64,000 bases of DNA from Nemertoderma westbladi (Eukaryota > Animalia > Xenacoelomorpha), in the NCBI GenBank assembly GCA_032718475.1, contig JAUCBJ010006656.1, forward strand, positions 1-64,000, read 5' to 3'. The notes beneath the pieces were generated by a model that searched no databases, was not told the DNA's origin, and saw only the letters and a program-made list of their open reading frames with translations. Both the position numbers and the translations under genes were made by a program. Below, in pieces: positions 1,583-64,000 of this stretch; the first letter of the stretch is position 1, and each line of letters opens with the position of its first letter.

Positions 1583-2913
1583 ACTTTGTAGAATGCGTAT
1601 AGGTAAGGTTCACCGTTGGTTAAATTTTTTTTTTCAACATTACAGTAAATTTAGGGTTGGCCAATTTTATCAAATGTAACTTGACTCGAGTTCGATCCCG
1701 GCCGTATCTGTTAATATTTTGCATTTTAATTTGATTATTTAATATTATTTAGAAATAATCACTTAAAATCGTCAATAACTTAAACAATAGTTTTATACAG
1801 AGATGAAGAAGTGGATACGTTTAATACCGCAAGGAACGACATAGACTGTCAAAACCACAGCAAACTCATAATCTAGGCAATCTTAGTTCCCGATCAACTT
1901 AGATCTTAAGCTACGGCTGTATGGGGTTGCTAAAATTTAGTTAGGTCCTATGTATGTCGGTCGGTCATTCTGCTATCCGACAATCTGACCGTCATAAATA
2001 TAAGAAAGAACACACCATTTAGCTAAAAGTATAGTTATAGGGGTTTTCGTAGCCGCAGAATTTATTTCTAGTGTCAGTTGTAACATTTGATGACTTCCCC
2101 ATTATCTGTTTGGTTCTCAAGCTGTCTGTTATATTATGTCTGTCTGTTTTTGACGGCCAGATTGACAGTCATACAACTGTACAAACAAAAACCACGACGC
2201 CAAATTTTAATATTGACATCAGAAATGAAGTCACGGATCAAGATAACGCCGATATAGGAAATGTTTTCAGACAGAAATGCTTTCTATTGTTTTGGAGACT
2301 CACAGAATGACTGACGGACAGTCACACGGACAGACAGCTATATCTCAAGAAATAAGAGAGATCTTGCTAAACTGTTTTCAAATTTGGAATCTTGATCAAA
2401 ATCTGCTCTAGGTGAAATAGAAAAAAAATCTTTGAAAAAAATTTGAATTCCCACTATCCCCCCCCCCCCCCCCCCCCCCCCCCTTAAACCACACCTACAG
2501 TATAACATACAGGGCAGGGGGACAGGGTGCGCCACGCGTACGTCGGGTACGCCACGCCAACGCCGGGTACGGTTCTGCTACAGTGCTACACGCGGCCACC
2601 CACCCCAATACAGACTGCGCAATGTTGTTTACTGACAATACACTGTGTGTTTAACACGCACTTTCGTTGATGCAAGTTCAGAAGTTGTCTGTCCAATACC
2701 TAGGACTCGGACATACCATTTAACATACAGTAGTAGTCCTAAGTTAAAGTGTGGTTGGCACCGGGACAGAGAACCCTACCGGTACCTGCCAGGGTAGGTA
2801 CCTAACCAGGACCCAGCTCTTTATATTTCAGTGCTGCAGTACGCAGGTAGGTACCGGTACCTATGTTGTACCGACGTGTTGTACCGTACGTCATGTACAG
2901 TACGTACGGTAAT

Positions 2914-4127
2914 TGTAAAAGCTTTTGCGGAATTGCCCGGTTATTTTTCCTTATTTTTCCCGTAAAATACTCTGTAGTTGGTTTAGTAGGCGTAAGAGGC
3001 CGTATTATTGCTGTATCGGTGTTTTTTAGAGGACCTAAGAGCTATTTCTTCCGTATGTGTACTTTGGGGGACATGGTTGGTGATTCTATGGCAATTCTAT
3101 GACGCAAAATAGCTAGATCCTCTTGAAACAGTAGTTACTATGACGACGGTTAACAGCTGAGCTGTATACGTGTCGATTTTCTTTGTTCTACGGTGCCTCT
3201 CAGTTCAGTCAACCAATCAGAGCGTTTTTACTGTTCTTGTACAGAAATTTCCTAGAAATCACGCAATGCTTTATGGGCAGTGTTATCATTCAGTCCTGAG
3301 CCAAGAAAGAACGGCTTTTGGAATATTTGTGCTTTTCTGCTTTTAGCCTAACACTAGTAGGCTTAATTATAAGGACATATATCCGTTATCCTGGGTAACT
3401 CAATGGTTAACAACTTACTCAATGCTTGGCTGGTCTTGTCGTGCATACTTTTATAACGTTATACTGCTATTTACTGTCGGTTATTCATTATATGGTTGAT
3501 GAAATATTATATTTGGAATAACGAGAAATAACCCCGAAAACCCAATATTCTTGATATACCGAAGGTAAGAGAGACAGGTTACATATAACGATTGTGACTT
3601 ATGTTAAAGTGGTTTGAAGTGAATCTAATGTTATCTGATAGACCCTACATGAGTCGGTCTGTGTTCCTTTTATATGTGACTAAAATCAGTGAAGATCGGC
3701 AGATCAGTGTGCAGTATTGTGCAGCATTGTGTATGAGTGAGACTGATAACGAAGCATTTCCTAAAGAATGCGCCATATATGTGAATTGTAACTAAGCCAT
3801 ATCGTTGCATGTAGTTTAAGTCATAGCTCTGTTTATATAGATAGAGCGCCACGTCCAAAAGGAACTGTTAATATTCCCCGAAGGTGAATAATATTGTCAG
3901 AGATTATATAATACTGTCAGTCGAATAATACATTAGGCTTACATAGCAATAAGATTAAGCCGTCGAAGTCAATCTCCCGGGTATATCCAGCGGGTGAATG
4001 ATCGCGCACAGATTGGTTTCAACTAGTGTAGTGAATCAAATACTTGTCAGAGGCTAAAAGCGATTTATTATCTAGAAGACATCCTAATTTGGCGGGTTAA
4101 ACTGCCAAAGGTCTGAAAGCGCGAACA
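2914..4127 (+). repeat. 5' LTR of BEL element
   Basis: TGTAAAAGCTTTTG...GCGCGAACA, direct repeat of 14507-15719. Confidence 0.97.
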
Positions 4128-4139
4128 ATAACGGATATA
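4128..4139 (+). promoter_or_regulatory. Non-tRNA primer-binding site complementary to the element's own LTR (candidate self-priming site)
   Basis: ATAACGGATATA abuts the LTR end and is the exact reverse complement of TATATCCGTTAT at 3378-3389 (and 14971-14982). There is no TGG-initiated tRNA PBS. Confidence 0.75.
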
Positions 4140-4496
4140 GCTTCTTTATTGCAGTAAGCAATAAAGTTGAAAGTACCGGTCAACCGGTAAACCTGAACCG
4201 GTACTGCGGTACGTCTGTAGGCCCAACTGCCTGAACCGGTACTGCTGTAGGTCTGTAGGCCCAACTGCCTGAACCGGTACTGCTGTAGGCCCGTAGGCTC
4301 AACTGTCCTAACCGGTACTTCCAGTACAGGTATAGCAGTATTATTCGATTTTGATTATTATATACCAGTAGGCCTTAATAATTAATCAGGGAGGGCCCGC
4401 CCTGGTTTTTTATTGAGATTTTACTTATTTCTGTCAGTTTTATTTATTTGTAGGCCAATATTGAGCAGAAGGCGTGTAAGCCTGCTCAGATTGTAC

Positions 4497-5085
4497 AGAT
4501 AATTTGTAGGCTTGACTGTTGGCTAACTGTTGATTAGGTCTGAACGGATTGCAGTGCATGTAGAGTGTATGTCCGATAAAGAACGGTTAGGAAGTAGGGG
4601 CAGCCATAGCTGTAAGGTAAACCCCCATCTAAAGAATAAGTCGTACTACTGGGTTAGAACGCATACTACTTAACCATTTCGGAGTCTGCATGTCCTGTGG
4701 TTTATTTAGGCCTGATAGGAGTCCGCCAGCGTTTGGTCTGTACTTTGTTTGTGTAGTCTGTACGGGTAGCGTATAATTTTATTTAGATAATTTGTAGGCT
4801 GGATAGTTGTCTGGCTGTTGTTGGGTTTGAGGAAATTTCGGTGTGTGTAGAGCATCTGTCCGATAAAGTGCTAAGTTAGGAAAGTAGGGGCTTCAAGTGC
4901 TGTGAGGTAAACCCCCTGTGAAAGAATAAGTCGTACTACTGGGTTAGAACGCATACTAACTAATCATTTTGGAGTCTGCATATACCGTAGTTTGTTTAGG
5001 CTTGATAGTAGTCTGTCAGTATTTGGTCTGCATTTTGTTTGAGTAGTTTGTACGCGTAGCGTAATATTTATTATTCAGAGTTTAT
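4497..5085 (+). ncRNA. Tandem ~290-bp duplication in the BEL leader carrying a conserved structured RNA motif
   Basis: Core AAAGAATAAGTCGTACTAC at 4631 and 4921, also at 63349 and 63637 in the second element. Nested stems show a compensatory change (TCCGA/TCGGA vs TCTGA/TCAGA). Confidence 0.6.
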
Positions 5086-6407
5086 GCGATTATTCGCAAC
5101 ATTCATTCCCCAAGTTTGTTCCTACAGTAATTGTGTTTGTTATACATACCGTTATAGTTAAACTAACCCCGGTACTACATCAGGGCTGCTCGGCGTAGGT
5201 AAAGACTGGAGATTTTATGCTTTGGTCACTCCGGCAGATACCGTGGTTCTTTTGGCTGTTCAAGTATTTTTAACTACTGATTATTTGTTGTACAAGTACT
5301 TGTACCTAATTTAGGGTTTAGTGTACAGTACTTTCCGAAGGTGATTAGTGTGTAGGCAGTATATTTGTGTTGTAAAGTGGTTAATAGGCACGTTGGTTCT
5401 GGTAGACCGCGGTAATTAATCTCTAGGTAGGAACACTCCGTGATACATAACGTAGTACCTATAGCGATACGGCTATAGGTCGTCAGGCAGTGGTATTTTC
5501 CTATCTGGACAGCGCAATATATTTACTACTACTTATTATTTTCAAATACCGTAGTAACCTGTCCGTTGTAATAACCAGATATTCTAACCCTTTGTTAGGC
5601 TGGTTAGTAGACTTCTTGTAAAATTACCCTAAAAATTTGTATTTGTGTATTTGTAATTAAATTTTTGTGTTTATTTAGAGATTGTAATCTCAACCCGAAT
5701 TGTACGTAATTTGTAGTATTAAGTAACTTAGGTAAATTATAATTATTTGTTTTAGTGTCTAACAAGTAGCACTCCACTGAGAGCGCACAGCTTATGTGTA
5801 GTGACTCCCCCAGAAATAATAACATTTATTTCAAACATTGACAAAACCCATTAAACGGGTATATATATATTATAAATCAACTCAAACGATTTATAAATAG
5901 TAGGCCTGCCATACAACAATTAGGTCTCAATATCAGTTGGACTACTGCTTAAATAACGGCAATAAAGTAAGTTAAAGTAACCAAGTAACCCTTAAAATTC
6001 AGAAATTCAATTATTTAAAATAATTGATATACCGGTATTTACAATAGGCTTATTATCTTTATTTTCATAAACTTAGCCTGAAATCATACCGGTATTCTGT
6101 AATTAATTTTAGTTAATAATTATACTTATATATACTATAAGTGTAAACTGCATACCGGTATCCACGATAGGCCTATTATATATTTATATATATTTGTGCT
6201 AAAATTATATACCGGTATTCTGTAAAAAACCTAGTCTGTAATAATACTTATATATACCATAAGCATACCGGTATTCTAATATTATATATATTACGCTACA
6301 CTGAGTAGCAGTATCGGTAATTAATTACTAGGCTAGCAGTTAATACTGAATTACTAGACTTGCTTGGACTGTAATATAGCAGTAGGCATTCAACTGTGCA
6401 AACAAAC

Positions 6408-9400
6408 ATGTCTGATACTAAGCAGAACATGTCAGACAGTTTATTAGATGTAACTATCTGCGACTCAGATAAGGGTGTAGAACCGTCTACACCTAAGTTC
6501 AGTTCACCTCCCACTGTGAGGAAGGTCATCCCTCCAGTAGTAATAACAGAACCGAGGCTGGTCCAACATCGTAGGTCTATCATAGGCACTCGAGCTCAGG
6601 TCAAGCGGGACCAAGAAGCAGCGGAACAGCAACAACCCGCGAGCCAAGAACTTATTTCTCAGCGGCCCGACAGCTCCAGTAGTGAGGATACTGTAGAGCT
6701 AACACCCGAGCGCGGAGCAAGGATGACGGATGCGGTTTATTCGGATCCCCTTCTCATCCTTCCTGCATCCGTACTCACTAGGTTATTGATCGCGGTGGAA
6801 GAACACCAGATTGATTGGGCGAGAAGTAAGCGATCCACTAAAGATAGTTATGAGGGATACACAAAGGAAGAACTGAAATCTATTGTCGAGTCGCAATGGA
6901 ACTTCCCCGGACCCGGACTCCCGTTTGATTTATCAGAAGCTGCCTGGGAAGACATACACCAGATGGGAGTAGCCAAGGAAACCATCGATCCAGCTGTGTG
7001 GAAGAGGTCCGCAGCCGGATACGCACAGGGATTCTTCAGCTCTATGGAGCGAGTAAAAGAACAACTGTTTCAACAACCGCAAGGACCTCAAGAGCAGGGA
7101 CAACTGCTTTATCAAGTTAGAGAAAGAATTCTGCGAATTAGGCTAATCTTATCGGCCTTTGAGGAGGCTTCTAAAAGAAGACAAGACACGTCATTGCAAG
7201 TTGCCGTAAAGACTTGGTTTCAACGGGTGAGTCGCCAGGTTCAAGGAACAGCGCAGTGGAAAGCTCAGCTGGAGGAGCGCTCAACCCATGGAGAATCAAC
7301 AGACGCTACATTTTCCCAAGTGGAGAGTGAAGCGACAGCAGAGAAACCGCATAAGAGGGATGCCATTGACATCTATCTGTCAGACTATCAGCGTTTTTTA
7401 GGAGATGAAGAGTTTAGGAGAAGGTTAGATGGACTTAGCCCTAATAGCGAAGGAACTCAGCGTGTGTTGGATGCCATCGATGTGGACATGAGGGCTGCGA
7501 ACCAGGCTAAATTTGATGAACGCCTCCGCATCACTAGAGTCCAAGAAGAACAAGTAAAGAAAAAACGTATAGAAGACAGAAAGGCAGCGGCAGTAGCAGC
7601 AGCAGTGGCATCGGCAGAAGCTGAAAGAAAGGCGGCCGAAGCGGAAAGAAAGGCGGCAGCGGCAGAGGCAGAAGCGGAGAGAAAAGCGGCCGAAGCGGAA
7701 AGAAAGGCGGCAGCGGCAGAAGCGGGGAGAAAAGCGGCCGAAGCGGAAAGAAAGGCGGCAGCGGCAGAGGCAGAAGCGGGGAGAAAAGCGGCCGAAGCGG
7801 AAAGAAAGGCGGCAGAGGCAGTAGCAGAAGCAGAACGGAGAGCGGCTGAAGAAACCACCCAACTAGAATTGGAAAACATTCAGGAGAATCAAGACTGCAT
7901 AAATAAACAGTTAACAGCTAGTAATATGCAGATGATGAATCGATCTACTCCCAAAAGACAGGGATATACATCATCTGAGGAAGGCGATACCACCGATACT
8001 GAAGGCAAAGGAAATAGATCTCACCTAAGCAGACGTAAAAGAACATCCCACCGTCAGAAATTGCCTGATTTGCCTCCAGCTGTTCGAAGGCAACTAAATA
8101 ACACCAACTTAGGTAGTACAGAACCCACAGACCAAATAATTACAATAGAGAGACTCCCTACTATAGTAGATGAGCCTGAAATAATTAGGCCTGTTCCCGA
8201 AGCCACCCTTTCGGTCGTAGAGACACCTGTACTCCCTGAACCTACCTCTCAATTCCCTTTGCACAGCACTAAGCTACCTGTGCCCAGCAGAACAGCCCAT
8301 GAGACAGTTCATGCCCTGGACTCCGAGCGAAATATTCACGATTTGTCGCCCGTTGTCCCTCGTCCGCCCGCTACAACGTTGGCGAATCCCGCTTCGGCGG
8401 TTGAATGGGTGGATGAGAGACGACGGGGGATGGATCTCCTGCTCAGACAGATGCAGGAGACCGTTCAGCAATTCAAGGGCACAGTAAGGGAAAGTAGGCT
8501 AGAGTTGCAAGAAGTGCAGCAAAGTATCGCGTTAGAACGCGATAAATTAGTAAATACACAAAAGGGTATACCACCACCCCCTGTAACAATGTGTCAACCT
8601 GTTAGGTCTGAATGCGTATCTCATGCGCAAGGTGTGGAGCCTACACGCATCTATACTGCTAGCGAAGTAGAAACTCCTATAGTGAACCCTATTAAGAGTA
8701 ATTATAGACCTGTTGATAATGATATTCCCTATAGACCTGATCATAATCCGAGAAATTTATATACCGATAACTCGATATTAAATAACACGATGGCCCAAGA
8801 AAGTTTTACGCGTCAAATGGCTAGAACTGAAGCCCGGCAAGCGGTAAAGGTGGGAGAGATAGTCAAGTTCAATGGAGATGAGATGAAATGGTTACCTTTT
8901 AATGAATATTATAAAGATAACATACAGAACTCTGTACTATCTAATGGAGAGAAACTTAGATTCCTCATCGAGTGTTTGGAAGGATCTCCCAAGTTAATGG
9001 CGTTAAAGTTTATTGGACATCCAGACGGATTAAGACAAGTTTGGGATACACTAAACATCAGGTATGGTAATAGGAATAACATAGCTGGGTATTTGTATGC
9101 AAAGTTGGTAGCGCCCCGAAAGTTTATTAGCAGCGGGATTATAGAGTTTTCCGATGAAATTCAGGAGATCTGCAGACAATTAGATTGGCTAGGTAAGTCT
9201 CATGAGTATCAGAGTGCTATGGTTATTAGAGCAGTGGCTTCTACTTTACCGAAGGGTGGAGTAGGTACACGCTGGGACAAGAAAGTGTTATATATGATGG
9301 AACAACAACGACGAGACCCTACCATGGCTGATCTCATGTCATTCTTAGATGGAGAAGTGAAATTACAGCTCCTAAGGCAGTCCAGAGAGAAGACACTGGA

Positions 9401-11438
9401 AAACAAGGTAAGTGAGAAACCCGTTTCTAGGAGAAGGGTAACACCAGTGTGTTATACAGACGACGGCGAAAGCCAGACTTCTCAAGGAGAGGATAGCGGG
9501 AAAGACACTGAAAGATCTTATTATGTCAATAAAACGCCTAAAGACCAGGTAAGTAAATTCAAGTCTCGAACCAATGACAGGAGAGAACAGGTAAGAAAAA
9601 CTCCTCCTACGTCTCCCAAGAGAATTCAGGTGAGAAAGCCCGAGGAAAGAACGAACGTGCACCACACAGCACATGTTAAAGTAAGTAACATCAAGCCCAA
9701 ATGTGTGCTGTGCGATGGGCCCCACCGTTTAAGTGCGTGTGATGAATTCCTGAGGAAATCTCTAAAGGACAGACGTGAAGTCATGTGGGATAAGCGGTTG
9801 TGTTATAATTGCCTCAGACGAGGACACCAACGGCGAACCTGTTACTCCGACGCAAGGTGTGCAAAGTGCGGTGCGAAACATCATATCTTGTTGCACACTG
9901 AATTCGAGCGAAATAGTCCAAGTCAGGTGAGTGATTCCGAACTACATGTCCAATTCAGTGATGTGAACGACACTGATCAATCTGAGATGGAAGGATTCTA
10001 TACGGACGAGTTCTCCGACGAAAACGAATCCTGTTACATGATAAATACCGCAGTGTATCGAGCACTCACTTATGAAAAAGATACAGAAAGTGACCTCACT
10101 CTAACTACTTCTGATCGACAACCATACTGGAAAGCGCCACCTTCCAATGTAGGAATCCGAGAATTTCCTGTAGTCCAGTTACGGGTCCACGGACCTCAGA
10201 AGAGCTATATAGTGAACGCCCTCCTGGACTCCGGCAGCACAGGAACATTCATCGATAAAGAACTAGCCGAAGACATCTTTGCTGGACAACCCAAGTTCCG
10301 AACCAAGCTAAACATGTCAGGGATCATGCAGGTTTGGAAATCTGCTGTGGCTGCCGACTATTATATAGGTGAGTTGTCCACTCCACAGGATAAACTAGGA
10401 GAACACAGTATAAGGTCAGTCAAAATGGTGGCAATAAAGAACTTCGCTACCACCCAAGTGGAACCTTATAATTGGGACGAAGATGATCATGCCCAACGAC
10501 TTAACATTCCTAGATTCGACACCGATTATCCTGGAGTACAAATATTAATCGGTCAAAACGCGCATGAGGCGCTGGAGACATTGGAGAAACGACCTGCTCA
10601 ACCGCAACCACTTCAGACCCATGCGGTAAGAACTAGAGTAGGTTGGTACCTTACTGGACCTTCCCGAAGAACGCTCAGAGAAAGACTGCTTCAAGATCGC
10701 GTCTGCCAGGTGAGTGAATGGGAAGATGATACTAGTGAGGGAGACGACCCAACTGAGGGAACACCATACTCCTCAGATAATGACGATATTAGCTCCAATG
10801 TAGATCAATGGAGATATTGCCCCAAGAAGTTTAATCCAACTGACATCGCTTCCAGAGGAGCAACTCCTCAAGAACTGACAGATACTACAGACCGGTTAGG
10901 TGAACCCGACTTCCTGAGTAAGGAGGATGAATGGCCTCCCCATCTTACTCCGACTGAGATTAGACCAGCCAAGGGAGCGGAGAAAGTCAAACCTAAAACC
11001 CAGACGGGTGGATCGGAGTTATTTGAACCCGGGATAGATCTGTCGGTATTACATATTGCCAGGGACGACGCCGTGGATCTGGACCTCCCCACCGCGAGTG
11101 GATCCTTCATGAAGATCAGAGAGAGCGATTGGAGCTCTGGAACATCAGACGTCTCGCAGGGACTCTCACCTCTCCTGCAGGGAGCGACGGACCACTATAG
11201 CTCCTGGATTCGGCTTTGTAAGGCCGTCGTGTACCTAGAGCGATGTTTCTATCGTCACTATTCCAGGACGAAGAGGAAACCTGGAATTGTATTCGGGATG
11301 CAGCGACTCAATCACCCAGTCGGTCGTTTGTGTTTACCGGAAGGGAATGGAGGACTCTCCGGAAACTGTGGAAGGCAAGATTCTCTTCCCATGACCACCT
11401 CCCTAATCCTTCAAACATCTAGGGACTCCATAACGTAA
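6408..11438 (+). CDS. BEL/Pao Gag-aspartic protease polyprotein with RT and most of RNase H deleted in frame and integrase absent
   Basis: First ATG at 6408. DUF1759-like Gag core (KFNGDEMKWLPF...EKLRFLIECLEG...VWDTLNIRYG). Three Cys/His knuckles (CVLCDGPHRLSAC, CYNCLRRGHQRRTC, CAKCGAKHHILLH). Protease ALLDSGS and BEL motif TRVGWYLTG, followed directly by the late-RNase H motif QWRYCPKKFNPTDIASRG. No YxDD or DDE motif. Confidence 0.9.
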   Translation: MSDTKQNMSDSLLDVTICDSDKGVEPSTPKFSSPPTVRKVIPPVVITEPRLVQHRRSIIGTRAQVKRDQEAAEQQQPASQELISQRPDSSSSEDTVELTPERGARMTDAVYSDPLLILPASVLTRLLIAVEEHQIDWARSKRSTKDSYEGYTKEELKSIVESQWNFPGPGLPFDLSEAAWEDIHQMGVAKETIDPAVWKRSAAGYAQGFFSSMERVKEQLFQQPQGPQEQGQLLYQVRERILRIRLILSAFEEASKRRQDTSLQVAVKTWFQRVSRQVQGTAQWKAQLEERSTHGESTDATFSQVESEATAEKPHKRDAIDIYLSDYQRFLGDEEFRRRLDGLSPNSEGTQRVLDAIDVDMRAANQAKFDERLRITRVQEEQVKKKRIEDRKAAAVAAAVASAEAERKAAEAERKAAAAEAEAERKAAEAERKAAAAEAGRKAAEAERKAAAAEAEAGRKAAEAERKAAEAVAEAERRAAEETTQLELENIQENQDCINKQLTASNMQMMNRSTPKRQGYTSSEEGDTTDTEGKGNRSHLSRRKRTSHRQKLPDLPPAVRRQLNNTNLGSTEPTDQIITIERLPTIVDEPEIIRPVPEATLSVVETPVLPEPTSQFPLHSTKLPVPSRTAHETVHALDSERNIHDLSPVVPRPPATTLANPASAVEWVDERRRGMDLLLRQMQETVQQFKGTVRESRLELQEVQQSIALERDKLVNTQKGIPPPPVTMCQPVRSECVSHAQGVEPTRIYTASEVETPIVNPIKSNYRPVDNDIPYRPDHNPRNLYTDNSILNNTMAQESFTRQMARTEARQAVKVGEIVKFNGDEMKWLPFNEYYKDNIQNSVLSNGEKLRFLIECLEGSPKLMALKFIGHPDGLRQVWDTLNIRYGNRNNIAGYLYAKLVAPRKFISSGIIEFSDEIQEICRQLDWLGKSHEYQSAMVIRAVASTLPKGGVGTRWDKKVLYMMEQQRRDPTMADLMSFLDGEVKLQLLRQSREKTLENKVSEKPVSRRRVTPVCYTDDGESQTSQGEDSGKDTERSYYVNKTPKDQVSKFKSRTNDRREQVRKTPPTSPKRIQVRKPEERTNVHHTAHVKVSNIKPKCVLCDGPHRLSACDEFLRKSLKDRREVMWDKRLCYNCLRRGHQRRTCYSDARCAKCGAKHHILLHTEFERNSPSQVSDSELHVQFSDVNDTDQSEMEGFYTDEFSDENESCYMINTAVYRALTYEKDTESDLTLTTSDRQPYWKAPPSNVGIREFPVVQLRVHGPQKSYIVNALLDSGSTGTFIDKELAEDIFAGQPKFRTKLNMSGIMQVWKSAVAADYYIGELSTPQDKLGEHSIRSVKMVAIKNFATTQVEPYNWDEDDHAQRLNIPRFDTDYPGVQILIGQNAHEALETLEKRPAQPQPLQTHAVRTRVGWYLTGPSRRTLRERLLQDRVCQVSEWEDDTSEGDDPTEGTPYSSDNDDISSNVDQWRYCPKKFNPTDIASRGATPQELTDTTDRLGEPDFLSKEDEWPPHLTPTEIRPAKGAEKVKPKTQTGGSELFEPGIDLSVLHIARDDAVDLDLPTASGSFMKIRESDWSSGTSDVSQGLSPLLQGATDHYSSWIRLCKAVVYLERCFYRHYSRTKRKPGIVFGMQRLNHPVGRLCLPEGNGGLSGNCGRQDSLPMTTSLILQTSRDSIT

Positions 11439-12931
11439 CAACATATGGAGTGGGTGTGTGACTCTATTATTTTGTATTTGTTTTAATTTTATATTTATGT
11501 ATGTATTATTATGTAATTTTATTTTAATCGTTTTATTTAATTTTATTTAGTAGTATGGTATTTTAGAGATTATTTAGTAGATTAGTGCAATATATATTCG
11601 CGTTTATTATTTAATTACGTATATTATATATTTAGTGCGACGGCGAGAAATAATTCTTTTTCTCTTTCCTTACTGCCCGTATCATATTATAAATACGTGA
11701 CTACAGTAAGATGAAATATCCGTACTTATTAAAGTACAATAAAGCCACTACTATATTTAAGTATTATTGGTAGGCAGAGTATTAGGAATGCAAAGTTCAG
11801 ATCCTCGTGTCTCGGCTAAACCAAGCTCTGGGTAGACCTTGGAAACGACTTGCCTCTTCACACTGACATTGCTTCGTGCGATATTGCTCTCATACCGTAT
11901 ATTAAATAATACATATAGTAGCGTGATGTCCCTCTAACAGTAGCGTGAAACGCAAATAAATCTGTTAAACCTTTTGACCATCTGTAATTCTAGTCGATTA
12001 AGATATCGCGGCACCCACCGATATACTTGAAAGACAAATTCTAGAATCAGTGGTTAATGTCCCCAGACATGTTCTAGAATCAAAACATGTCAATTTAATT
12101 ATCAAATAATAAAATTTCAGGGAATAAATTTAAATTCATGCCTTTTAATGAATTTAATAAATTGCCATTTTTACGCAATTTATAACATTCCCAAAATTCC
12201 ATTAATTAATAGATCAAGGGAGCGGAGATTTATCTTCTTATGCGTATGAGTGTGCGAAAGTCTCCCAAACATAGTCAATAGCCGATAAAATTCATAAAGC
12301 CATGTATAAAACAGGACATTGACCATTAAAGAATTACTATTAAATAACATCCCAGATCTGTATGCATTGGAATTACCCTAATTCTACCGCTAGCTTTGCA
12401 TAATGTCACCATAGCAACAACCACGCTAGAATTAGAATTGAGTTAAAAGAACAATAGAAAGCTTGTCCCATTGAATAGCATAGGGAATAAATAGCGCACT
12501 GCTAGTATCCAAGGATACATGATAATAACGTGACATTCTGGAAGGCACTGACTAACGGACAAGTGACCCGAGTGTGTGTAATTTGTGACAAGTTGTGTGT
12601 GTGGTATTTGTGAGTTTATAGGCGAATGTTACTACTAAGGTGTGTTTACAGTAGCGAGTCGCAATTGTGAAAGTAACCCTAACTCTCCAGTAAGAACCTG
12701 AGGTGTATCTAAGCCTTTGGGACGGACAGTCGAGTGACTTGTGCCGGTTGTCGTTGTCGTTGTGCGGCTACGTCGTTGGCGAAAGTACAGCGGCGACGAC
12801 ACATCGGCGCTGAGGATCTCGCACTGTCCGGGGGCTGATTGGGGTAGGCAGCGACGCTCGCTAGCCTAAATATAAACTCATTATAATATTAATAAACTCA
12901 TATATAGCAGATATGACGGAGTTGATAGAAG

Positions 12932-14011
12932 ATGGTCTTGGTATCAGGGAGCGATATACTCTACTTTCAAGCATTTGTTGATAGCTTGATACGCGGTGAT
13001 ACTAGTCCAACTACTACGGAGGATGATGGTCGTTATATCGAACCTACGATTTCCTGGAAGTAACTTACGCGTGAATTGGACTATGGAAAATTCACCGCTC
13101 GCTATACGCATCGTAATGGTACGTATATGGACTTCTTGACTACTGGTCATCCTATTGATTTACACGACACCGACGATATAGACACCGAAAGGGAAATGGT
13201 TTTATTTAAATATCATACCCAGCGGAGTCGAAACGATAAATCGAGAATAGAACACGAGAACTCTATTCGAAACAGACTCGAGAGGGAAGACGTTGAAGAA
13301 CCTGATAAACGTCGCGACTTCAACGACTATCTAGAATTCCTAAGAGAGACCTATCTCAATATTGCCAGTCAACAAAACCTCGAAACTCGATATCCTCAAG
13401 GTATACATCCAGACCCTATGATGGAACTCAAACGGCTCTATTTTACGATGATGTATCTTACCGCCGATCGACCGCTACCTGTCGTTCCAGATAGCTTCGA
13501 ACAGATGGAGGAATATTGTAAAACTGGAGAGCGATCACCCGCGTTTCCCCTTCAAGACGTGCGTCTTTGGTATTATTACGATAAATGCCCTAGACCCAGC
13601 CAATAAACAGAAAGACATAAACATCCACGGAAACGTTGTGTTAAACACAGTTGTGCTCGTTATATTTACTGGAGTTTCGAGCGAAACTTGTTTGACGTAT
13701 CACCTATGCTCACTCGGCTCGAACGATCCTGGAGTAAACCTACGATCAGAGTCCCGGAATACTCGGTCAAACCTCCTCATTCCTTAGTTGGACCTCAGAC
13801 CTGCGATCCTGGTGGTGTCGCGGATCCTCGCGGACTGTATTCACTGTTCAAAGATCTAGTGCTACCCTAACAATTAATTGGTAACACTCCGACAGAGATT
13901 TCTAGCTAGCCGCTCATCTTACCTAGCCGGATTGTGACGCGGACACCTAATATCACTATCCAACCGTATGGTCGTCCCCGTTTAACGCGATACAACCCTT
14001 CATCAAGGTGA
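12932..14011 (+). pseudogene. Decayed accessory ORF of unknown function in the 3' internal region of the BEL element
   Basis: One frame from ATG 12932 links ORFs 13076-13606 and 13688-13870 through in-frame stops at 13061, 13604, 13868 and 13907. No recognisable domain. Confidence 0.5.
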
Positions 14012-14506
14012 AGGAGAGCATTGTACGAAACGAGTTAAACGCTATTCTATAAAGATCAAAAAAGAAACCTGCGTTTGTTCAGATAAACGTAAGTTATAAC
14101 AGTAAGTCCAATCGATAAACGAATTGGCCTTATCTCAGTTCGATTGGGAAATCTCGAAACTCTAAGAAGATATCAAGCTTAGAAAATCCTATTCTCTGCG
14201 AGAGTTTTGGACGAACGTATCCCATGACAAGCGGAGGAAAATCAGCTCGAGGAGAAGCATATCGAAATGGACGAGACACCGACCGTAAACCCAAACCTTC
14301 TAATGCAATTGTATTGCACCCTTTACCCAGAGTTATAGCCTTTCTAGTAAAGTGGCTCGCCCCAAAGAGAAAAGGACTCTTGCTGGCCTCGGGAAACTGC
14401 GTGAACGCCGTCCGCGCAAGAAAACTAACTGTTTAGAGTATCTTTATGTTTTAGAAACTGTGATTTTTATATTTTATAGACTGAAAATCCCATTTTCTGG
14501 GAGCGG

Positions 14507-15719
14507 TGTAAAAGCTTTTGCGGAATTGCCCGGTTATTTTTCCTTATTTTTCCCGTAAAATACTCTGTAGTTGGTTTAGTAGGCGTAAGAGGCCGTATTA
14601 TTGCTGTATCGGTGTTTTTTAGAGGACCTAAGAGCTATTTCTTCCGTATGTGTAATTTGGGGGACATGGTTGGTGATTCTATGGCAATTCTATGACGCAA
14701 AATAGCTAGATCCTCTTGAAACAGTAGTTACTATGACGACGGTTAACAGCTGAGCTGTATACGTGTCGATTTTCTTTGTTCTACGGTGCCTCTCAGTTCA
14801 GTCAACCAATCAGAGCGTTTTTACTGTTCTTGTACAGAAATTTCCTAGAAATCACGCAATGCTTTATGGGCAGTGTTATCATTCAGTCCTGAGCCAAGAA
14901 AGAACGGCTTTTGGAATATTTGTGCTTTTCTGCTTTTAGCCTAACACTAGTAGGCTTAATTATAAGGACATATATCCGTTATCTGGGTAACTCAATGGTT
15001 AACAACTTACTCAATGCTTGGCTGGTCTTGTCGTGCATACTTTTATAACGTTATACTGCTATTTACTGTCGGTTATTCATTATATGGTTGATGAAATATT
15101 ATATTTGGAATAACGAGAAATAACCCCGAAAACCCAATATTCTTGATATACCGAAGGTAAGAGAGACAGGTTACATATAACGATTGTGACTTATGTTAAA
15201 GTGGTTTGAAGTGAATCTAATGTTATTTGATAGACCCTACATGAGTCGGTCTGTGTTCCTTTTATATGTGACTAAAATCAGTGAAGATCGGCAGATCAGT
15301 GTGCAGTATTGTGCAGCATTGTGTATGAGTGAGACTGATAACGAAGCATTTCCTAAAGAATGCGCCATATATGTGAATTGTAACTAAGCCATATCGTTGC
15401 ATGTAGTTTAAGTCATAGCTCTGTTTATATAGATAGAGCGCCACGTCCAAAAGGAACTGTTAATATTCCCCGAAGGTGAATAATATTGTCAGAGATTATA
15501 TAATACTGTCAGTCGAATAATACATTAGGCTTACATAGCAATAAAATTAAGCCGTCGAAGTCAATCTCCCGGGTATATCCAGCGGGTGAATGATCGCGCA
15601 CAGATTGGTTTCAACTAGTGTAGTGAATCAAATACTTGTCAGAGGCTAAAAGCGATTTATTATCTAGAAGACATCCTAATTTGGCGGGTTAAACTGCCAA
15701 AGGTCTGAAAGCGCGAACA
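14507..15719 (+). repeat. 3' LTR of BEL element
   Basis: Near-identical to 2914-4127 and followed by TSD GTAAT. Confidence 0.97.
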
Positions 15720-16434
15720 GTAATGGGCCTAACTTCCTAATTCATATCCTCAACAATCAGTCCCAGACCAATAGACCAAGCTATTCCAGTACACAGGCAA
15801 ATAGGCCTATTAACTAACCCGCTATTACTATATATGTGACAGGTACGGTACCCGGTAGGCTTCCCTACATAATTTATTATACAGTATACAGCAGTACACA
15901 ACAAATAATAGGCATACCTGATAAGAAATTAATATTTAATTTGGCGACAATTTTATTCAATAATTTCGTGAATTGTCTTATAGAAAAGCAACGCGCGCCT
16001 TATTTTATCTAAAAGTTGATACCCGGGGTTATTTTTTTGTGCTCTTTCTATTTTCGACTGTATTCGATTGTGTTCGGCAGTTTTTGGAGTGTGTTGGGGT
16101 GTATCTGCAAATCCTGCAAATCATTGTAAACAAATACACATATTACTGCAATTAGTAATCCTGTTACCGTTAGGGCCGACCGGTAAACTGGTATGAGCAT
16201 TGTTATGTTATGGGTAAAATAAATATTAATTTAGCGATGTTATATGCACCAAAATTTTCATTTTATTAAAATACTTAATCAAATACAATATTTATTTTCA
16301 CCTGGGTGGTAGTACAATATTTAACTATAATATCCATCTGGGATTCCCCGAAAAAAACAATTCCTCTACATAAGATAAACATTAGTCTAAATGATCAACT
16401 TTGTGGGTGTCTATAAAGAACTAAAGGAACTTAC

Positions 16435-17614: not shown

Positions 17615-19122
17615 TATAGTATTGAGAAGGCAATGATATATATATAATACTGATCATTCATACCGGTAGGTCCCATACCATACTACACTACTTTCCTTCT
17701 CAACAAAATAATCTCTCAATCAATCTAATACACACATATACTAAAATTTCTAGCAACGGAAAATAGTCAATAAACAACATTATGAATCCATGAGTGTTTA
17801 CATTTATACCATACATGACTCAGTGAAATGAGTATATAGTCTAGGAGTATGTTCTAGGCGAACCCATAGTACTGCAGGGGCATATGGATACGAATTGGAT
17901 ATGATCGTACGTTGTTGTCTAGGGCGCATGGTTGTTGCTGAGGTGAGACCTGTGGCAGATTATCACCGCCGCCTCCGATTAGTGGAGCCCCGGATTCGAC
18001 AGCTGGGAGGTGAGTGTCAATAGGAGGGGTCCCAGATCCAGTTGAGTTGGTACCGTGGAATGTGCCCACAGGTTCATCATATAAATGGGCGTGTTGTGGG
18101 TCTACAGGTTGGACCATCCGACGGTTTCTACTAATGGTGGCACGGTGTCGACCTTCAAGGAGGACTTTATCACCCATTATGTCTTTAACACGATGACCCG
18201 AGTATGAGTAGCCACGCCGATCAAAGTTCTTCACCATAACAGGTTGATTAATTTCCAGGGATGGGAGAGCTCGAGCATTATGCCTGGAGTTGAAATCTTC
18301 TGCAATCTTCTCACGTCGTGACATACATGCACTACATGGCTGAAGTGGTGGCAGTGGCAATTGTGGCAATCGACCTTGGCGGTGCTGGCCAATATGACTG
18401 TAGAGAACTTTAGCAGGTATATCCCCAGTGATACGATGTTTTGTGTTACGTAGTGTGAAGAGTACTGTAGAGAGACGTGATGAGAATGAAGATTTCTGAA
18501 GAATTCTGAAAAATGAAGATTTGTACATCATTTTCTTAATTTCCCTATGGATTCTCTCCACCATACCATTAGACTGAGGATAGCGAGAAGATATTTCTAC
18601 TAAGTTACACCCAATTGTGGTTAGGTATTTCTTAAATTCATGGGATCGAAATTCTTCAGCATTGTCTGAGACTAATGAACGTGGTAGACCAAACCTGGCA
18701 AAGATTTAATCTAGCTTCATAATAACTGTTGTGGTTTTGGAATTGTGGACAGGGATTGCCTCAATGTATCGTGAACCATAATCAACTAATGTTAAACACT
18801 TTACACCTTCCATAAAGGCACAGTCTATAGCAATTCGTTCCCAGGGATGATAATCGGATTGTTTAAGACTCTGAGGTGGTAAAGGGTCATGGGCTAGTTG
18901 GCAGTTATAACAGGATGAAACAAACAAGTGAACCGATTTAGCCATTCCAGGCCACCAAACATTAGCAACTAGTAATTCCGTCATTTTAGTTATCCCAGGA
19001 TGCCTGTCATGGGCCAGTTTTAGAACCAAGGGTCGCAGGGATTGTGGTACAACCAACTGTACAACCAAGCTGTCTACTCCCTTGGTTCCTCGAGCTTGGG
19101 TACTGCCCAATAGTACTATCCC
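17615..19122 (-). mobile_element. Gypsy element 1, 3' half (integrase, PPT, 73-bp 3' LTR)
   Basis: HHCC motif (AHDRHPG...CYNC) and DDE core (IAID, SDNA, NGMVER) broken by a stop at 18706. PPT GAGAAGGAAAGTAG. LTR 17615-17687 is the reverse complement of 20311-20381 and is followed on the minus strand by TSD TAACG. Confidence 0.9.
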
Positions 19123-19800
19123 GATCCACCCCAGCTCCTTCAAGGCCGTGTCGATTTCCGTTAGCGATAGACATAGATTGTCTTTCACCTCCATTAGTAG
19201 AAATAGGCCTAGTTGATACGTTGTTTCTTCGAACAGGTTTAGAACTCAGTGCCTCTGTTTGCCCTCATTCCCATTGGTCCCTCTGATTATTTACCACCTC
19301 GGTCCATTCTCTCGCATCTTCGGATTGTCTCCGCTGACCTTGAGCCAACTGCCTACTAGTACTACTGTTTCTCGAAGACGCACTGCACTGGTAGGCAGCA
19401 TACGTGGATGAGCTCCTGGTGGTATTCGCGAAGATTGCGGCAGGTCTTTGTTCGATTCCGATTGGATTGGATGCTTGGCCTTCCAATAGTGATAGGGTCC
19501 CTTGATTCTGCTTGGAGTATCAGCATATCCTTGCAAAATATGACTTCATTCTTGGCAGCAAGAGTTTATAATGTCGCGTCAGATAAACGTCCGAGCGCCT
19601 TAACATACAGGGCGTTCATGTTGGTAAGATTCTCTATCATTGTGCGTTCATCCTCACTTGACCTGCCTCGCTTTTCTTTGGTAACCTTTATCGTTGAAAC
19701 AATGTTCTGCAGGAAGGCCGCGAACGCACTCCCCTCTGATTATGTCGCCATTACTATAATTGAAGTTCACTATCATATATTCCTCAATTAAAATCAATAA
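19123..19800 (-). mobile_element. Probable 5' part (decayed ORF1) of the LINE whose ORF2 lies at 23896-26316
   Basis: Broken coding frame with ORF1-like STYAA and EWTEVV motifs. It becomes co-oriented with and adjacent to the LINE ORF2 when 19123-23895 is re-inverted. Confidence 0.5.
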
Positions 19801-20310
19801 AGTAATAAAATAAAGTCGTAAAATTGTAAAAGCAGTACAGCAGTACTGGAGTATTTATGCTGTTATTAAGTAGGCAGGTAGGCTATCCTAATGGCAAATA
19901 AACATGTGACTAAGTGTTACAGCTGTAACACTACTTAGTCCTTAAGGAAGAATGTGAAATGATATCAACGAAGTCGAATCGCATTTCAATGAGTGAAGGG
20001 AAAAAAAGCGCAGCTAGACTACATCCTTAACCCTATTAAGTAATTTGGCAAATTTCGTACCCATCACCAAAAAGTACAAGTTTGCAATGTCCAGTGCTGT
20101 TTTTATGGATTCCATCGGATTCAGGACCCTCATAAACCCGTATAACGCAAGAAACAAGATGATACTATCTTCTGATCAATTTACTCATTTTCCAAAATTT
20201 GGTGCTGGCACAACAATTTTCACCCAAGGCCGAAAAATACAAGTTTGAAAACTCTTATGCAATTTTTACTATTCCATTGAATTCAGAAACCCTCACAAAC
20301 CCGTATAACG

Positions 20311-23300
20311 TGTAGTATGGTATGGGACCTACCGGTATGAATGATCAGTATTATATATATCATTGCCTTCTCAATACTATACTGGCGCAGTGTGTAGTTC
20401 AGTAGTTACCGGTACTGCGGTATTTAGGCTGGTCTGGCATCTGGTGTTCAGTACCGGGTTGCAGTACCTACCGTGTGGATAATATTGGCAAACATATTTA
20501 TTTGCTCGAACTGTGAACTGGCTGGTCGGTATGATTATAATTTTGATTATCAGTTTATTGTTGGCCTAACTGCCTGACTTAACACTTTCGCGGTGTAACT
20601 CTGAACTCTTTGGCTTAATCGGAACTGGCTGGCAGGCTGGCAAACCTCCTGGACTGCTGGACGGATTGTTGCTGTATTTCTGTATTTGATAGGCCTACCG
20701 CTACTACTGCTGTACGGTGGATGAACGAACATACTGGTACTTACAAACAACAAACATACCAGTACTCACAAACTGACAGCGTATTGGTACAACACTATAT
20801 CTGGACATAACTTACCGGTACAGCCCTATGGCGATGGCGAAGTACCCAGTACCCCCGGCATTGGATGTCAATGCTGAAGATATGGCTTTAGAATTTGGAG
20901 AATGGCGTCAAACATTTGATTTCTGGGCAGATGCAACCGACCTACGTAATACAGATAATGTAGAATCCCGAAAGGTTGGTGCACTGATGACATGTATTGG
21001 TAAAGCAGGTCAGAAAATTGCCATCCAAAATTTTACCTATACTGCAGATCGTCCATGCACTCTCACTAATCTGTTGGATGATTTTGCAACCTATTTTGAA
21101 CCCCTGCGCAATTTGTTGGTTATGCGCCACCTTTTTATGTCTCGTAAGCAGCGAGATGGGGAAACAGTTTCTGATTTTTTAACTTCACTGAAACAGTTAG
21201 CTAATTATTGTGAATTACAAAATGAAACACCTGACACTAAAGTTCGAGATATGTTTATTGTAGGGATTCAAAATGAAGAATTGCGTAAACAGTTGTTGCA
21301 GCTTCCTGCAGATGCAACTCTACCTCAGGTGCGCAATTTAGCAGGGGCATTTGAAGCAGCTCAGTGGTCATAAGGAACTTAAATTCTCGGGAGAGGAGAA
21401 GGGTACCACATCTGATGTACTGGCAGTTAGACGCTGCCCTGTTCAATGGCGCGAATCTGGTACTGGTGCCAGTAATAGTAGCCTAGGTAGGCCTACTGGA
21501 AAACCTCTGACTACTTATATACCCAACCAGCGAAATCGTATGTCAGGGTGGGATGTTTTTCGGTTTTGCTGTCAGTCTCATCGAAAAGGTTCATGCCCTG
21601 CCTATGGTCTGTTTTGTCAGCAATGTGGGTTGCGTAATCACTTCAGGGGCTCCCCACTCTGCAGACAGGGTCAGGGAATAGGGAAATCCACGCCCAACTC
21701 ATTGCAAGCAGTACCACCTTCTGGTGTTTCCCGGCGGAATCTTCCATCTCATAATGTTAGATATGTTGAGGATGAATTTTGTGCAGTTGATGCTATAGTT
21801 CAGGACTCGTTTTCTCAGCTTGACATTGATGCTGACCATGAGGTTGAGGTATATGGCTCAGACCATGATGATGTGTCATCATATGACATTCAGACAATTA
21901 AGCATGTCATTTCGCAAATTGGTGTTGATACATCTAAGTGGATGGTTTCCTTGTATGTATTAGGTCCATCACAAGGTATGTATATTGTATATACCATTTT
22001 TAGTGGATACTGGTACTAAGCACAGTATAATTCCCAGTAAATTCATATCTCCTATGATTATTCAATCTGCACCTGCAGAACAACTGCGTGGCTATATGTC
22101 CCAATGTTCATTACCATTGTTAGGGACGGCAACTGTTACTCTAACCTATTCCGGAGTTACAATTAGCACCAACATATATGTTGTCCGTGATGCACCCCTT
22201 TCCCTTCTTGGCCAGGACGATATAGAAAAGTTAGGCCTCATCAGCTGTCATTTTAAGCCACACCACTCAAATGTTGTCCATTCAGTGAATTCTTCTTATT
22301 CAAACATGTATTCGTCTGGAGAGAATAGAGAATTGCCTCCAATGAAAATACCCTGTGTTGATATTAAGATTAAGCCAGATGCCCTTCCAGTCCAACAGCC
22401 TATTACGTCGCATCCCATTTGGTTTATTGCCTGAGCTAAAGGAGGAAATCCTTCTTTCTTAGTGGGAATTGTTTAGAGGGAATTATTATACGTGTGGAAT
22501 CAAAAGAGGAAAGAGAAAATCCCAGTGAATGGGTAAGCCCAGTGGTATTAGCCCGAAAACCTAGTGGGAAACTTAGGCTATGTTTAGATCTTCGGGTATT
22601 AAATAAAGCAGTAGTCCATTCACGGATTCTTATCCCAACTCCAGAGGAGCTCTTTGCCAAGGTTGAAGGATGTTGCAATTTTTCGAAATTGGATGCATAC
22701 TCTGGATTCCATCAAGTGTGACTTTCTCCCTCAGCCTCACAGCTAACAACTTTTGTTCTTCCATTCGGTACCTTTAGATATGTTTGCCTCCCATTCGGTA
22801 TTACTAATGCACCCGAATTATATCATCAGTTAATGGCTGAAAGCTTGGAAGATATCAAGGGTGCTGATGTTCTGGAAGACAATGTTCTTATTTATGCAAA
22901 GACCTTAGATGAGCATGATGCAATATTAGCAATGGTAATGCAGCGCTGTAAGAATATGTCTATCTACTTAAATCCAGCGAAGTGTGAATATAGGAAGTCT
23001 GAGTTGAGGTACCTGGGCCATATCATTCCAGCTGAAGCTTGCTTTGCTTTTTTTGCTGCAAAGATTCAGGCAGTGACTTAAATGTCCTCACCAACCTCAG
23101 TGGCAGAGTGCCGTCGATTTCTAGGGATGGCAACATATTTGGCCAAATTTGTGCCAAGGTTTAGTGAGATTTCCACTCCCATCCGTAATCTGCTGAAGGG
23201 AAATATTGTCTTTTATTGGTCTTCTGATTGCGAAAAAGCCTTTAGTGACATCAAGAACCTGCTTACTAAATTTCCTACATTAAAGTTTTATAATCCCGAC

Positions 23301-23895
23301 CTTGACTCATATATCCAATGCGATGCTTCGCCTTCAGGCTTGGGTGTTGTTTTGCTACAATCTGACCCTAGTACTTGTACTATACGACCTGTTGCATTTG
23401 CCAGTCGGTCTCTGTCACCCACAGAGCAGCGATATTCCCAAATAGAACGGGAGACCTTAGCTATTTCATTTGGTGTCCATAGGTTCCGCCAGTATGTTCT
23501 TGGATTGAAGTTCACAGTCCTCTCTGACCATAAACCATTGAAAGCAATATTTGACAAACCCCTTGATAAATGTCCTGCTCGGATAATGAAGTTCTTGGTT
23601 AACCTACAACAGTATTCGTTTGTTCTCCAGTTCATTCCTGGTAAGACTAATATAATTGCGGACACCCTATCCAGAGCTCCCCTTCCTAATGCACAGGATG
23701 ACATAGGTTATGATTCGTACATCAATGTAATCCTCCCGTCTCACTTTGTGGATATAGAACAATTAGCTCAGGAGACATCCAAATGTTCTGAGGTGTCTAG
23801 TATTATCCGACGACTTCAGCTAGGTGATTGGACATTGTTAACAGAAGTGGAAGCGAGATATAAAGGTATCTTAAATGAACTGTCTGTGATAGATG
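20311..23895 (+). mobile_element. Gypsy element 1, 5' half (71-bp LTR, tRNA-Ser-type PBS, gag, protease, RT, RNase H), Mag-like, pseudogenised
   Basis: TAACG TSD at 20306-20310. PBS TGGCGCAGT at 20383. Gag 20828-22019 with CCHC knuckles, protease FLVDTG, RT (WVSPVV, LCLDLR, KLDAYSGFHQ), RNase H (CDAS, YSQIERE, DHKPL, ADTLSR). Multiple stops and frameshifts. Confidence 0.92.
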
Positions 23896-61719: not shown

Positions 61720-64000
61720 TGTAAAAGCTTTTGTGGGATAACTGATACGTTTGCCTTTGCTGGCCAGTTCCCCCCCAGTCGCTAGAATACTCTCAAAGGG
61801 ATTTATAACTAAAATAGTGCAAGCTACCAGCTTATTGGCTGATGTGCTGTACGGAGATATCTGGGCTCAGTTTAATCGGCCAACTAGCTTAGAGAGGTTG
61901 CCTTAGCCTTGCTGTTCGTGTCGGCCAATAGAATTTGCGTAGGCGTTGATTTCGACCTATCCCAGCGCTACTGAACTGAATTTCCTATCTCACTGCTCAT
62001 CCTCTGTGTTGGACGGGAGCTTCGGGGAATAAGAGTTTTTGGTATACTCGTATAGTGGTAGTAGTCATATGATTTTATATGATTCTGTTGTTGTGTTCCC
62101 ATTTTCGCCATAACATCGGCTTTTTGGGAAGAACTCTAGTAAAACTGCTTAAATTATCTTTAAGTATAAACTGTTACCTAACCGAACTACCGATCAATCT
62201 AATCAATCAACCTACCTATTAATCATATTGTTTGTACTGTTATTTACTGTCAGTTATTAATTGTACCTATTTGTTGATGGAAATATTGCTCTTTGGATAA
62301 TACGGATAAATCACCCAAATTTCCCAATTTTCTTGATACACTACAGGTTAGAGAGACCGGCTATACATAACAATTGCGATTTATATCAATGTGGTGTGTA
62401 TTGAATCTAATGTTATTTAGCAGACACTACATGAGTCAATTACTGCTCTCTTTATGTGTGATCAAATATACTGACGGTCGGCAGAATAGTGTGTATGATT
62501 GTGATTGGTAACAAAGTATTTCCTAAAGAATACGCTTTATACTTTAATCATAAGCGGTATCGTTGCGTTTTAGTATAAGTCTTAGTTCTGTTTAAATAGA
62601 TAAAGCGCCACGTCCTAAAGGAACTGTTAATATTTCCCGAAAGCCAATAATATCTGTCAGAGATTAATTATTAACGATCTATCGAATAATACAGTAGGTA
62701 TACACTGCAACCTTACACTGCAATAATACAATTTAAGCATCCGAATTCAGCCTCCCGGGTGTAGATCCATCGGGTGAATGATCGCGCATGGGCTGCCTTC
62801 GGCTAATGTTTTGCGTATTAGCATAAAATATTGTCGTATGCTAAAGGTGTTTTAATTAACTAAAAGACATATAAATTTTGGCAGGTTAAACTGCTAAAGG
62901 TCTTCAAAAGCGCGAACAGTAACAGTTTAGAATCTTATTGCAGTAGGCAATAAGGTTGAAAAAATACCGTAGTGACTGGTAAAACTGAACCGGTGCTTCT
63001 GTAGGTCAGTAGGCCTAACTGTCATCACCGGTACCGGTACTGCTGTACAAGTACATTAGCATTATTCGATTTTGATTATTGTATACCGGTAGGTCTTGGT
63101 ACTTAATCAGGGAACGGCCGCCCTGATTTTTATTTGAGATTCTACTTATTTCTGTCGGTTTTATTTACTAGTAGGCTAATATTGAGCAGAAGGCGTGTAA
63201 CCCTGCTCAGATTGTTCAGATAATTGTAGGCTGAGCTGCTGTCTGACTGTTGTTGAGTTTGGAGAGATTACGGCGTGTGTAGAGTTTGTCTGATAAAGTG
63301 CCGTTAGTAAGTTGGGGCAGCCATATGCTGTAAGGTCAATCCCCTCTTAAAGAATAAGTCGTACTACCGTGTTAGAACGCATACTAACTAACAGTTTCAG
63401 AGTCTGCATATACTGTAGTTTATTTAGGCTTGATCATAGTCTGCCAGTGTTTTAGCCTGTGTTTGTTTGTGTGGTCTGTTCAGGTACCGTAATAGTTATT
63501 ACTCAGATATTTTGTAGGCTAGATTGTTGTCTAGCTATTCTTAGGCCTGAAGGGATTGCTGCGTGTGTAGAGTTGGTCTGATAAAGTGCCGTTAGTAAGT
63601 TGGGGCAGCCATATGCGGTAAGGTCAATCCCCTCTTAAAGAATAAGTCGTACTACCGTGCTAGAACGCATACTAACTAACAGTTTCAGAATCTGCACATA
63701 CTGTAGTTTGTTTAGGCTTGATAGTAGTCTGCCAGCGTTTGGTTTGTATTTTTGTTTGAGTATTCTGTACGGGTAGCGTAATATTTATTATTCAGAGTTT
63801 ATGCGATTATTCGCAACATTCATGTCCCCAAGTTTATTCCTACAGTAATTGTGCTTGTTATACATACCGTTATAGTTAAATTAACTCCGGTACTACACGG
63901 GCTGCTTGGCGTAGGACAAGACTGGTGACTTTGTGCTCTAGTCACTCCAGCAGATGCCGTGGTTCTTTTAACTGTTCAAGTATATTTAACTACTGATTAT
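61720..64000 (+). mobile_element. Second, diverged BEL-family element: 5' LTR (61720-62918) and leader, continuing beyond the window
   Basis: Same termini TGTAAAAGCTTTTG...GCGCGAACA, homologous 3' LTR half, homologous leader with the ~290-bp duplication. The PBS-position sequence GTAACAGTTTA (62919-62929) is complementary to 62167-62177. Confidence 0.9.

Follow-up and report, generated by a model that had tools for sequence, protein, structure and literature searches.

In the LTR retrotransposon Tf1 the first 11 nt of the transcript pair with the PBS and RNase H makes the cut, as described in the available sections of PMC7175516, and about half of the Tf1 cDNA is reported to carry PBS DNA at its 3' end (available part of PMC11042837). 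According to the accessible portions of PMC6317226 and PMC4600332, self-priming has been shown for Tf1 and proposed for Tj1, Tcn1 and the sushi elements of vertebrates. In the same portion of PMC6317226 it is also predicted for the plant Copia elements TAR, Houba and Osr-1, from a complement of at least 10 nt to the sequence located 0-5 nt after the LTR. An earlier note on the DNA described here named the Tf1/sushi group as self-priming; in view of the plant predictions, self-priming extends beyond that group. For BEL/Pao elements, the ICTV account of the Belpaoviridae gives an 18-nt PBS for tRNA-Arg or tRNA-Gly and priming by host tRNA, while stating that replication is poorly understood (PMC8742986). 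The standard description thus assigns tRNA priming to the whole family, and the self-complementary PBS of the two elements described below departs from it. A full-text literature search found no report of self-priming in BEL/Pao; subscription papers, Repbase and GyDB were outside its scope, so remarks on single elements may exist. In PMC3118150 a look-up of the terms PBS, tRNA and priming gave nothing, and BEL/Pao self-priming is not mentioned in the available sections of PMC5445492, PMC3601003, PMC13524379, PMC9094657 and PMC3212995.

The window, by which we mean the whole 64-kb stretch of DNA analysed, contains a BEL/Pao element with two LTRs (element 1, 2914-15719; LTRs 2914-4127 and 14507-15719, diverging directly after ..GAACA) and the 5' part of a related one (element 2). 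The features of element 1 are the following.

2909..2913, + strand: left target-site duplication, GTAAT (5 bp), identical to 15720-15724
2914..4127, + strand: 5' LTR, 1214 nt, TG...CA, 4 differences from the 3' LTR
3948..3953, + strand: candidate polyadenylation signal position, AATAAG in the 5' LTR and AATAAA in the 3' LTR
4496..5079, + strand: two tandem units of ~290 nt, located in the leader (2.3 kb) and shared by element 2 (63216-63796)
6408..11438, + strand: single ORF encoding Gag (DUF1759, PF03564 E 1.9e-10; three Cys-His knuckles), aspartic protease and a short RNase H C-terminal remnant (tblastn)
13064..13606, + strand: 180-aa open frame in the 3' non-coding part, no Pfam match and no informative Atlas match
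14497..14506, + strand: G-rich tract at the PPT position; in related loci the 3' LTR is preceded by a tract of this kind as well
14507..15719, + strand: 3' LTR, with a copy of the partner (see below) at 14971-14982

The 5' and 3' LTRs differ at only 4 places in 1214 nt (3 substitutions and 1 indel), which indicates that element 1 was inserted recently. The assignment to BEL/Pao made in the earlier note was borne out: Gag and protease are BEL-type, and the LTRs have the TG...CA ends and the short target-site duplication of this superfamily. Homologues of the ORF are BEL/Pao polyproteins at 21-43% identity, eight matches all carry PF03564, PF05380 and PF18701, and five of the six relatives scanned for domains are full BEL polyproteins. 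In tblastn searches, full-length relatives aligned to Gag and protease and then jumped to the RNase H C-terminal remnant, and no match to RT or integrase was found inside element 1. The RT-RNase H-integrase part of a BEL/Pao element is therefore missing from element 1, apart from that remnant; the coding part of element 2 lies beyond the window. Element 1 is a young, non-autonomous BEL/Pao derivative without RT and integrase. The named clades of BEL/Pao are Pao, BEL, Tas, Suzu, Sinbad, Dan, Flow and Sailor.

Some further properties of element 1 can be added. At position 3953, the last letter of the candidate polyadenylation signal, ~64% of the read depth is A in read run X1. Gag has a long N-terminal extension with an alanine/glutamate-rich tandem repeat (7586-7851), and the 180-aa open frame listed above is in the 3-kb region that follows the main ORF (11440-14500).

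Element 2 runs off the window and its 3' LTR is not included, so the end of its 5' LTR was placed by comparison with the homologous element 1.

61720..62918, + strand: 5' LTR of element 2, 1199 nt
3474..4127, + strand: conserved part of the LTR (coordinates of element 1), likely R and U5, predicted to be structured RNA on the basis of identity and a two-sequence RNAalifold prediction

The leaders of the two elements are 82% identical over 1028 nt. The LTRs show mostly 60-88% identity downstream of 3474 and are at about noise level up to ~3470. AATAAA is absent from the LTR of element 2. In an Rfam search the conserved LTR part was assigned to no family, the single match being at chance level. 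The family to which elements 1 and 2 belong is abundant in three DNA runs labelled as one organism; scanning metagenome contigs with an LTR motif gave 0 matches.

Other parts of the window carry remains of different elements. Broken frames resembling Ty3/gypsy-type Gag-Pol, a class assigned by eye, were seen at 17854-24000 and 27143-32440, the second set lying between 244-nt direct repeats at 27143 and 32197. Fragments resembling non-LTR reverse transcriptases, partly duplicated, occur at 23879-26285 and 49955-53990, and 47397-48734 is an uninterrupted frame of 445 aa whose product is a subunit of a ligand-gated ion channel of the Cys-loop type (PF02931 E 5.3e-33). This channel gene and the range of hosts known for BEL/Pao are the grounds for speaking of a metazoan lineage.

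The feature of main interest is at the 3' border of the two 5' LTRs, where the PBS position is complementary to a stretch of the element's own LTR, called here the partner.

3378..3389, + strand: candidate self-primer (partner) of element 1, 12 nt, exact reverse complement of 4128-4139
4128..4139, + strand: PBS position of element 1, self-complementary, no tRNA-type TGG
62167..62177, + strand: candidate self-primer (partner) of element 2, 11 nt, exact reverse complement of 62919-62929
62919..62929, + strand: PBS position of element 2, self-complementary, no tRNA-type TGG

These complementarities had been pointed out in the earlier note, and all coordinates hold. As it also claimed, neither element has a TGG-type tRNA site, TGG being missing from the 30 nt that follow each LTR, and the helix has the geometry of a primer, its register being set on the first base after the LTR (offset 0 in both). 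The two PBSs differ at 5 of 11 positions when aligned ungapped; a gapped alignment reduces this to 3 substitutions and 1 indel, each of which is mirrored in the partner. Each element thus has, with 12 and 11 nt, the perfect PBS complement of at least 10 nt in its own LTR, ending at the LTR border, that characterizes Tf1-type elements. No tRNA gene was found in the 64-kb window.

The likelihood of such matches arising by chance was estimated in several ways. No LTR has more than one copy of its partner, and neither PBS recurs elsewhere in the window. When the LTR was shuffled by dinucleotides, the match turned up in 4 of 20,000 cases for element 1 and in 11 of 20,000 for element 2. Of the leader start positions compared, 999 in each element, none but the first base after the LTR reached the observed match length, and among unrelated window positions 7 in 45,000 reached it for each LTR.

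The partners are 738 (element 1) and 741 nt (element 2) before the LTR end. In this region, between 2954 and 3473, local 40-nt windows compared between the two elements give mostly shuffle-level scores, and as alignment here is at about noise level, the letter-level homology of the two partner stretches can only be inferred from their position and from the global alignment. The partner of element 2 overlaps a TATAAA at 62165; upstream of the partner no TATA box is shared by the two elements, and element 1 has no TATAAA there. TAAG is present 4 and 2 nt ahead of the partners, which suggested that splicing might extend the primer; this was rejected, as splicing yields no longer match and element 2 has no GTRAG donor.

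The differences between the two elements offer a further test of the pairing. In the PBS/partner duplex all four inter-element differences are two-sided Watson-Crick changes or a paired indel, whereas in other predicted helices one-sided changes via G-U account for 25 of the 35 differing pairs, or for 7 of 13 when only pair probabilities of at least 0.8 are taken, a contrast to be read with only 4 events on the side of the PBS duplex and covariation resting on two sequences. Strictly two-sided changes would be expected if the PBS were copied from the primer in each cycle. With 4 changes in 12 nt adjoining 12 identical LTR-terminal letters, the PBS resembles the fast-changing region of the partner.

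In the two-sequence fold (RNAalifold) the PBS-partner helix was predicted with a probability of 0.94-0.96. All 6 element 1 folds and 3 of the 6 element 2 folds that started at most 30 nt from the partner had it in the MFE structure, as against 0 of 8 folds starting at least 100 nt upstream of it. This last result sits uneasily with a primer located internally in the transcript; folding favours a transcript start close to the partner. Stems conserved between elements 1 and 2 were predicted on both sides of the PBS.

4003..4123, + strand: predicted helix 4003-4007/4119-4123 by the initiation site, in both elements
4144..4166, + strand: predicted hairpin immediately downstream of the PBS; element 2 retains it, with a paired indel

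The first of these would enclose a U5 hairpin (4088-4095/4102-4109), whose two differing pairs are changes of the G-U type, and would leave AACA before the PBS unpaired. Since the LTR downstream of 3474 is in any case conserved and predicted to fold, the closing helix alone is no proof of priming and could be under selection purely as a structure.

If the partner were used as primer, a cut would be predicted after 3389, and variation in the family begins at this point.

3390..3473, + strand: hypervariable stretch, its first base directly after the partner (contig joints, read depth, LTR-LTR indel)

Three contig joints leave the reference at 3390, the sole indel between the LTRs of element 1 is at 3390/3391, and read depth in run X1 decreases about forty-fold past the partner, from ~275,000 at 3355-3382 to 6,600 at 3411-3438. 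The coincidence of this boundary with the predicted cut is a hint in favour of priming. In run X1 all 24 variant rows (at least 12% share) are located at 3479-4084, none in the partner or the PBS; this is weak support, because read mapping favours reference-like copies, and the same applies to the finding of no third partner/PBS variant in the read runs.

Related elements were sought in metagenomes. A profile of 20 BEL polyproteins identified 80 loci, 46 of which, those with Gag-side flanks, were examined; in six loci the LTR end could be fixed independently by the divergence of the 5' and 3' copies. Four of these six have a self-complementary PBS at offset 0-3, and the two others (L031 and L039, probably one family) have a TGG-type tRNA site instead. 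In L076 the match is direct (11 nt), and in L013 (12 nt), L021 (12 nt) and L023 (15 nt) it exists only across a GTAAG...YAG intron in the LTR. None of 1000 control leader positions reached the match length for L013, L021 and L023 each, and 2 of 1000 did so for L076. A fifth case, L043 (10 nt, spliced; control 0/1000), was kept out of the count of four in six because its LTR end coincides with the contig end and it was picked after viewing. The GT-AG introns splitting the partner in L013, L021, L023 and L043 are 71-149 nt long and lie inside the LTR; elements 1 and 2 have no such intron in the partner, the best match being direct in both. In all five self-complementary relatives the partner is upstream of AATAAA/ATTAAA, and in the three that have a TATA box the partner or its splice donor is 120-140 nt downstream of it. 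By these landmarks, the partner of the relatives appears to lie inside R, away from the transcript start.

Several observations on these loci were not used in the counts. In L076 (100-326, 6694-7103) the partner of the 3' LTR is uninterrupted, and at the corresponding point of the 5' LTR there is a pyrimidine-rich sequence with CAG that resembles a splice acceptor; intron loss or an assembly chimera of two copies is possible. A de novo scan for self-complementary sites after any CA yielded 18 of 45 loci and was disregarded, having no null and including clear chance matches (L037; top match of L042/L043). L015/L016, with a spliced partner, and L025, with a direct one, both brought up by that scan, are sisters at 100/100 whose candidate PBSs share their first seven letters, an observation that can serve as a lead only. 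L016 contains tandem copies sharing one LTR.

In phylogenetic trees, from which L013 was omitted on account of its broken frame, the self-complementary loci (L021, L023, L076, and L042 for L043) form one clade (100/100), to which the tRNA-type pair does not belong. In three trees element 1, on a long branch, is also placed outside this clade (85/83). Joining it to the clade was not rejected by the AU test (p 0.9; likelihood 37 units higher in the 39-row set used), and self-complementarity in elements 1 and 2 and in the other BEL loci may have had one origin or two.

Taken together, the sequence signature is real and well supported, and self-priming is its likely mechanism. We think it probable that elements 1 and 2 start minus-strand DNA synthesis from a piece of their own RNA, a segment of R that would be cut by a helper RT/RNase H acting in trans. 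A Pol II transcript would start in the LTR at or upstream of the partner, the partner would pair with the PBS, and the helper RT/RNase H would cut after 3389 and extend the primer. The 3' base of the partner pairs with the first base after the CA of the LTR, so that the minus strand, on extension, would begin at the LTR end, and as element 1 lacks RT, priming must use a helper enzyme. Strong-stop DNA would end at 3390 and be transferred to the 3' R, which should reach as far as a poly(A) signal near 3948, a signal that element 1 has in its 3' LTR; plus-strand synthesis would then copy the primer into the PBS. Each enzymatic step of this scheme is modelled on Tf1 as described in the available sections of PMC7175516 and PMC5341516. 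Self-priming, proposed in the earlier note, thus appears to be the best explanation here too, given the covariation, the geometry and the lack of a 3'-end tRNA site. Its Tf1-style component, a transcription start at the partner itself (~3378 and ~62167), is not upheld: the relatives, with the partner inside R and, where there is a TATA box, well past it, argue against it, by analogy only.

The same analogy bears on the alternative offered in the earlier note, according to which the partner is in U3 and pairs with the PBS from the 3' LTR, circularising the RNA. With only the 3' LTR copy transcribed, priming might also take place from the 3' end, or a second RNA molecule might supply the primer. 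The overlap of the element 2 partner with TATAAA at 62165 was confirmed, and the noise-level identity between the LTRs of elements 1 and 2 up to ~3470 is usual for U3. However, element 1 has no TATAAA at the partner, the relatives have it between the TATA box (where there is one) and AATAAA/ATTAAA, and a cut in the 3' copy would presumably remove the R needed for strand transfer in cis; we consider a U3 location quite improbable. A coincidence, or a functionless relic of an inverted duplication, is hardly credible with nulls of 2e-4 and 5.5e-4, four mirrored changes and the same signature in unrelated loci, even allowing for the AT-richness of the 11-12-mers and for the relatedness of elements 1 and 2, which makes their two matches not independent.

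The duplex might also be a structural helix, serving packaging, dimerisation or a translation switch, that closes the leader domain, with an external RNA such as an internal tRNA fragment displacing the partner and acting as primer. Half-tRNA primers do exist in Copia lineages (available portion of PMC6317226). Of the three PBS substitutions, two are transitions, which an outside primer with a U at the position could accommodate, and downstream of 3474 the LTR shows conservation and a predicted structure whose helices covary. This explanation is nevertheless unlikely in our view: in elements 1 and 2 the duplex reaches exactly to the first base past the LTR, and in four unrelated loci its end is 0-3 nt away from that point, its changes are strictly Watson-Crick, and the PBS letters differ so freely between families that no single tRNA fits.

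Self-priming by an R segment, if it takes place, predicts cleavage after 3389 and strong-stop cDNA that carries 12 nt of the element's own RNA at its end. tRNA-independent initiation would then be a feature of all three LTR superfamilies and would extend widely in animals. BEL/Pao elements using it would be freed from the host tRNA supply and, by extension, could escape silencing by PBS-targeting tRNA fragments, and the failure of annotation tools to find a PBS in some BEL elements would be accounted for. We lean slightly towards the broader view that self-priming in BEL/Pao is widespread and unreported, the primer being cut from inside the element's own R and copied into each new PBS, so that the pair drifts freely, with lineages switching between an intron-split primer, spliced by the host, and an intronless one. 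An origin of BEL/Pao self-priming independent of Tf1 is plausible.

Among described systems, Tf1 and Tf2 of Schizosaccharomyces pombe, Tj1, Tf1/sushi and Tcn1, all Ty3/gypsy, are alike in having a PBS of ~11 nt after the LTR, a complement in the own LTR and no tRNA site (available sections of PMC7175516 and PMC4600332). The first five letters of the Tf1 PBS, ATAAC in the accessible part of PMC11042837, are also those of element 1 (4128-4132), element 2 having GTAAC; the identity may be due to chance or to enzyme preference. Elements 1 and 2 differ from Tf1 in belonging to another superfamily, in the loop of ~740 nt, in a primer that, judging from the relatives, is probably internal to R and not the first bases of the RNA, and, for element 1, in the need for RT in trans. 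They are not members of Tf1/sushi, as Ty3/gypsy chromovirus-type Gag-Pol is absent and Gag and protease are BEL-type. With the Belpaoviridae (PMC8742986) they share TG...CA LTRs, a DUF1759 Gag with Cys-His knuckles and the protease, and the nearest full-length relatives carry PF05380 and PF18701, but they have no PBS of the tRNA-Arg or tRNA-Gly type, and RT and integrase are missing from element 1. Both elements conform to the rule of at least 10 nt within 0-5 nt given for the plant Ty1/copia elements TAR (Houba, Osr-1) in the available portion of PMC6317226, although these belong to the Copia superfamily, occur in plants and are self-priming by prediction only. L013, L021, L023 and L043 have, like elements 1 and 2, a self-complementary PBS of 10-15 nt at the LTR end, the difference being that elements 1 and 2 carry the partner uninterrupted.
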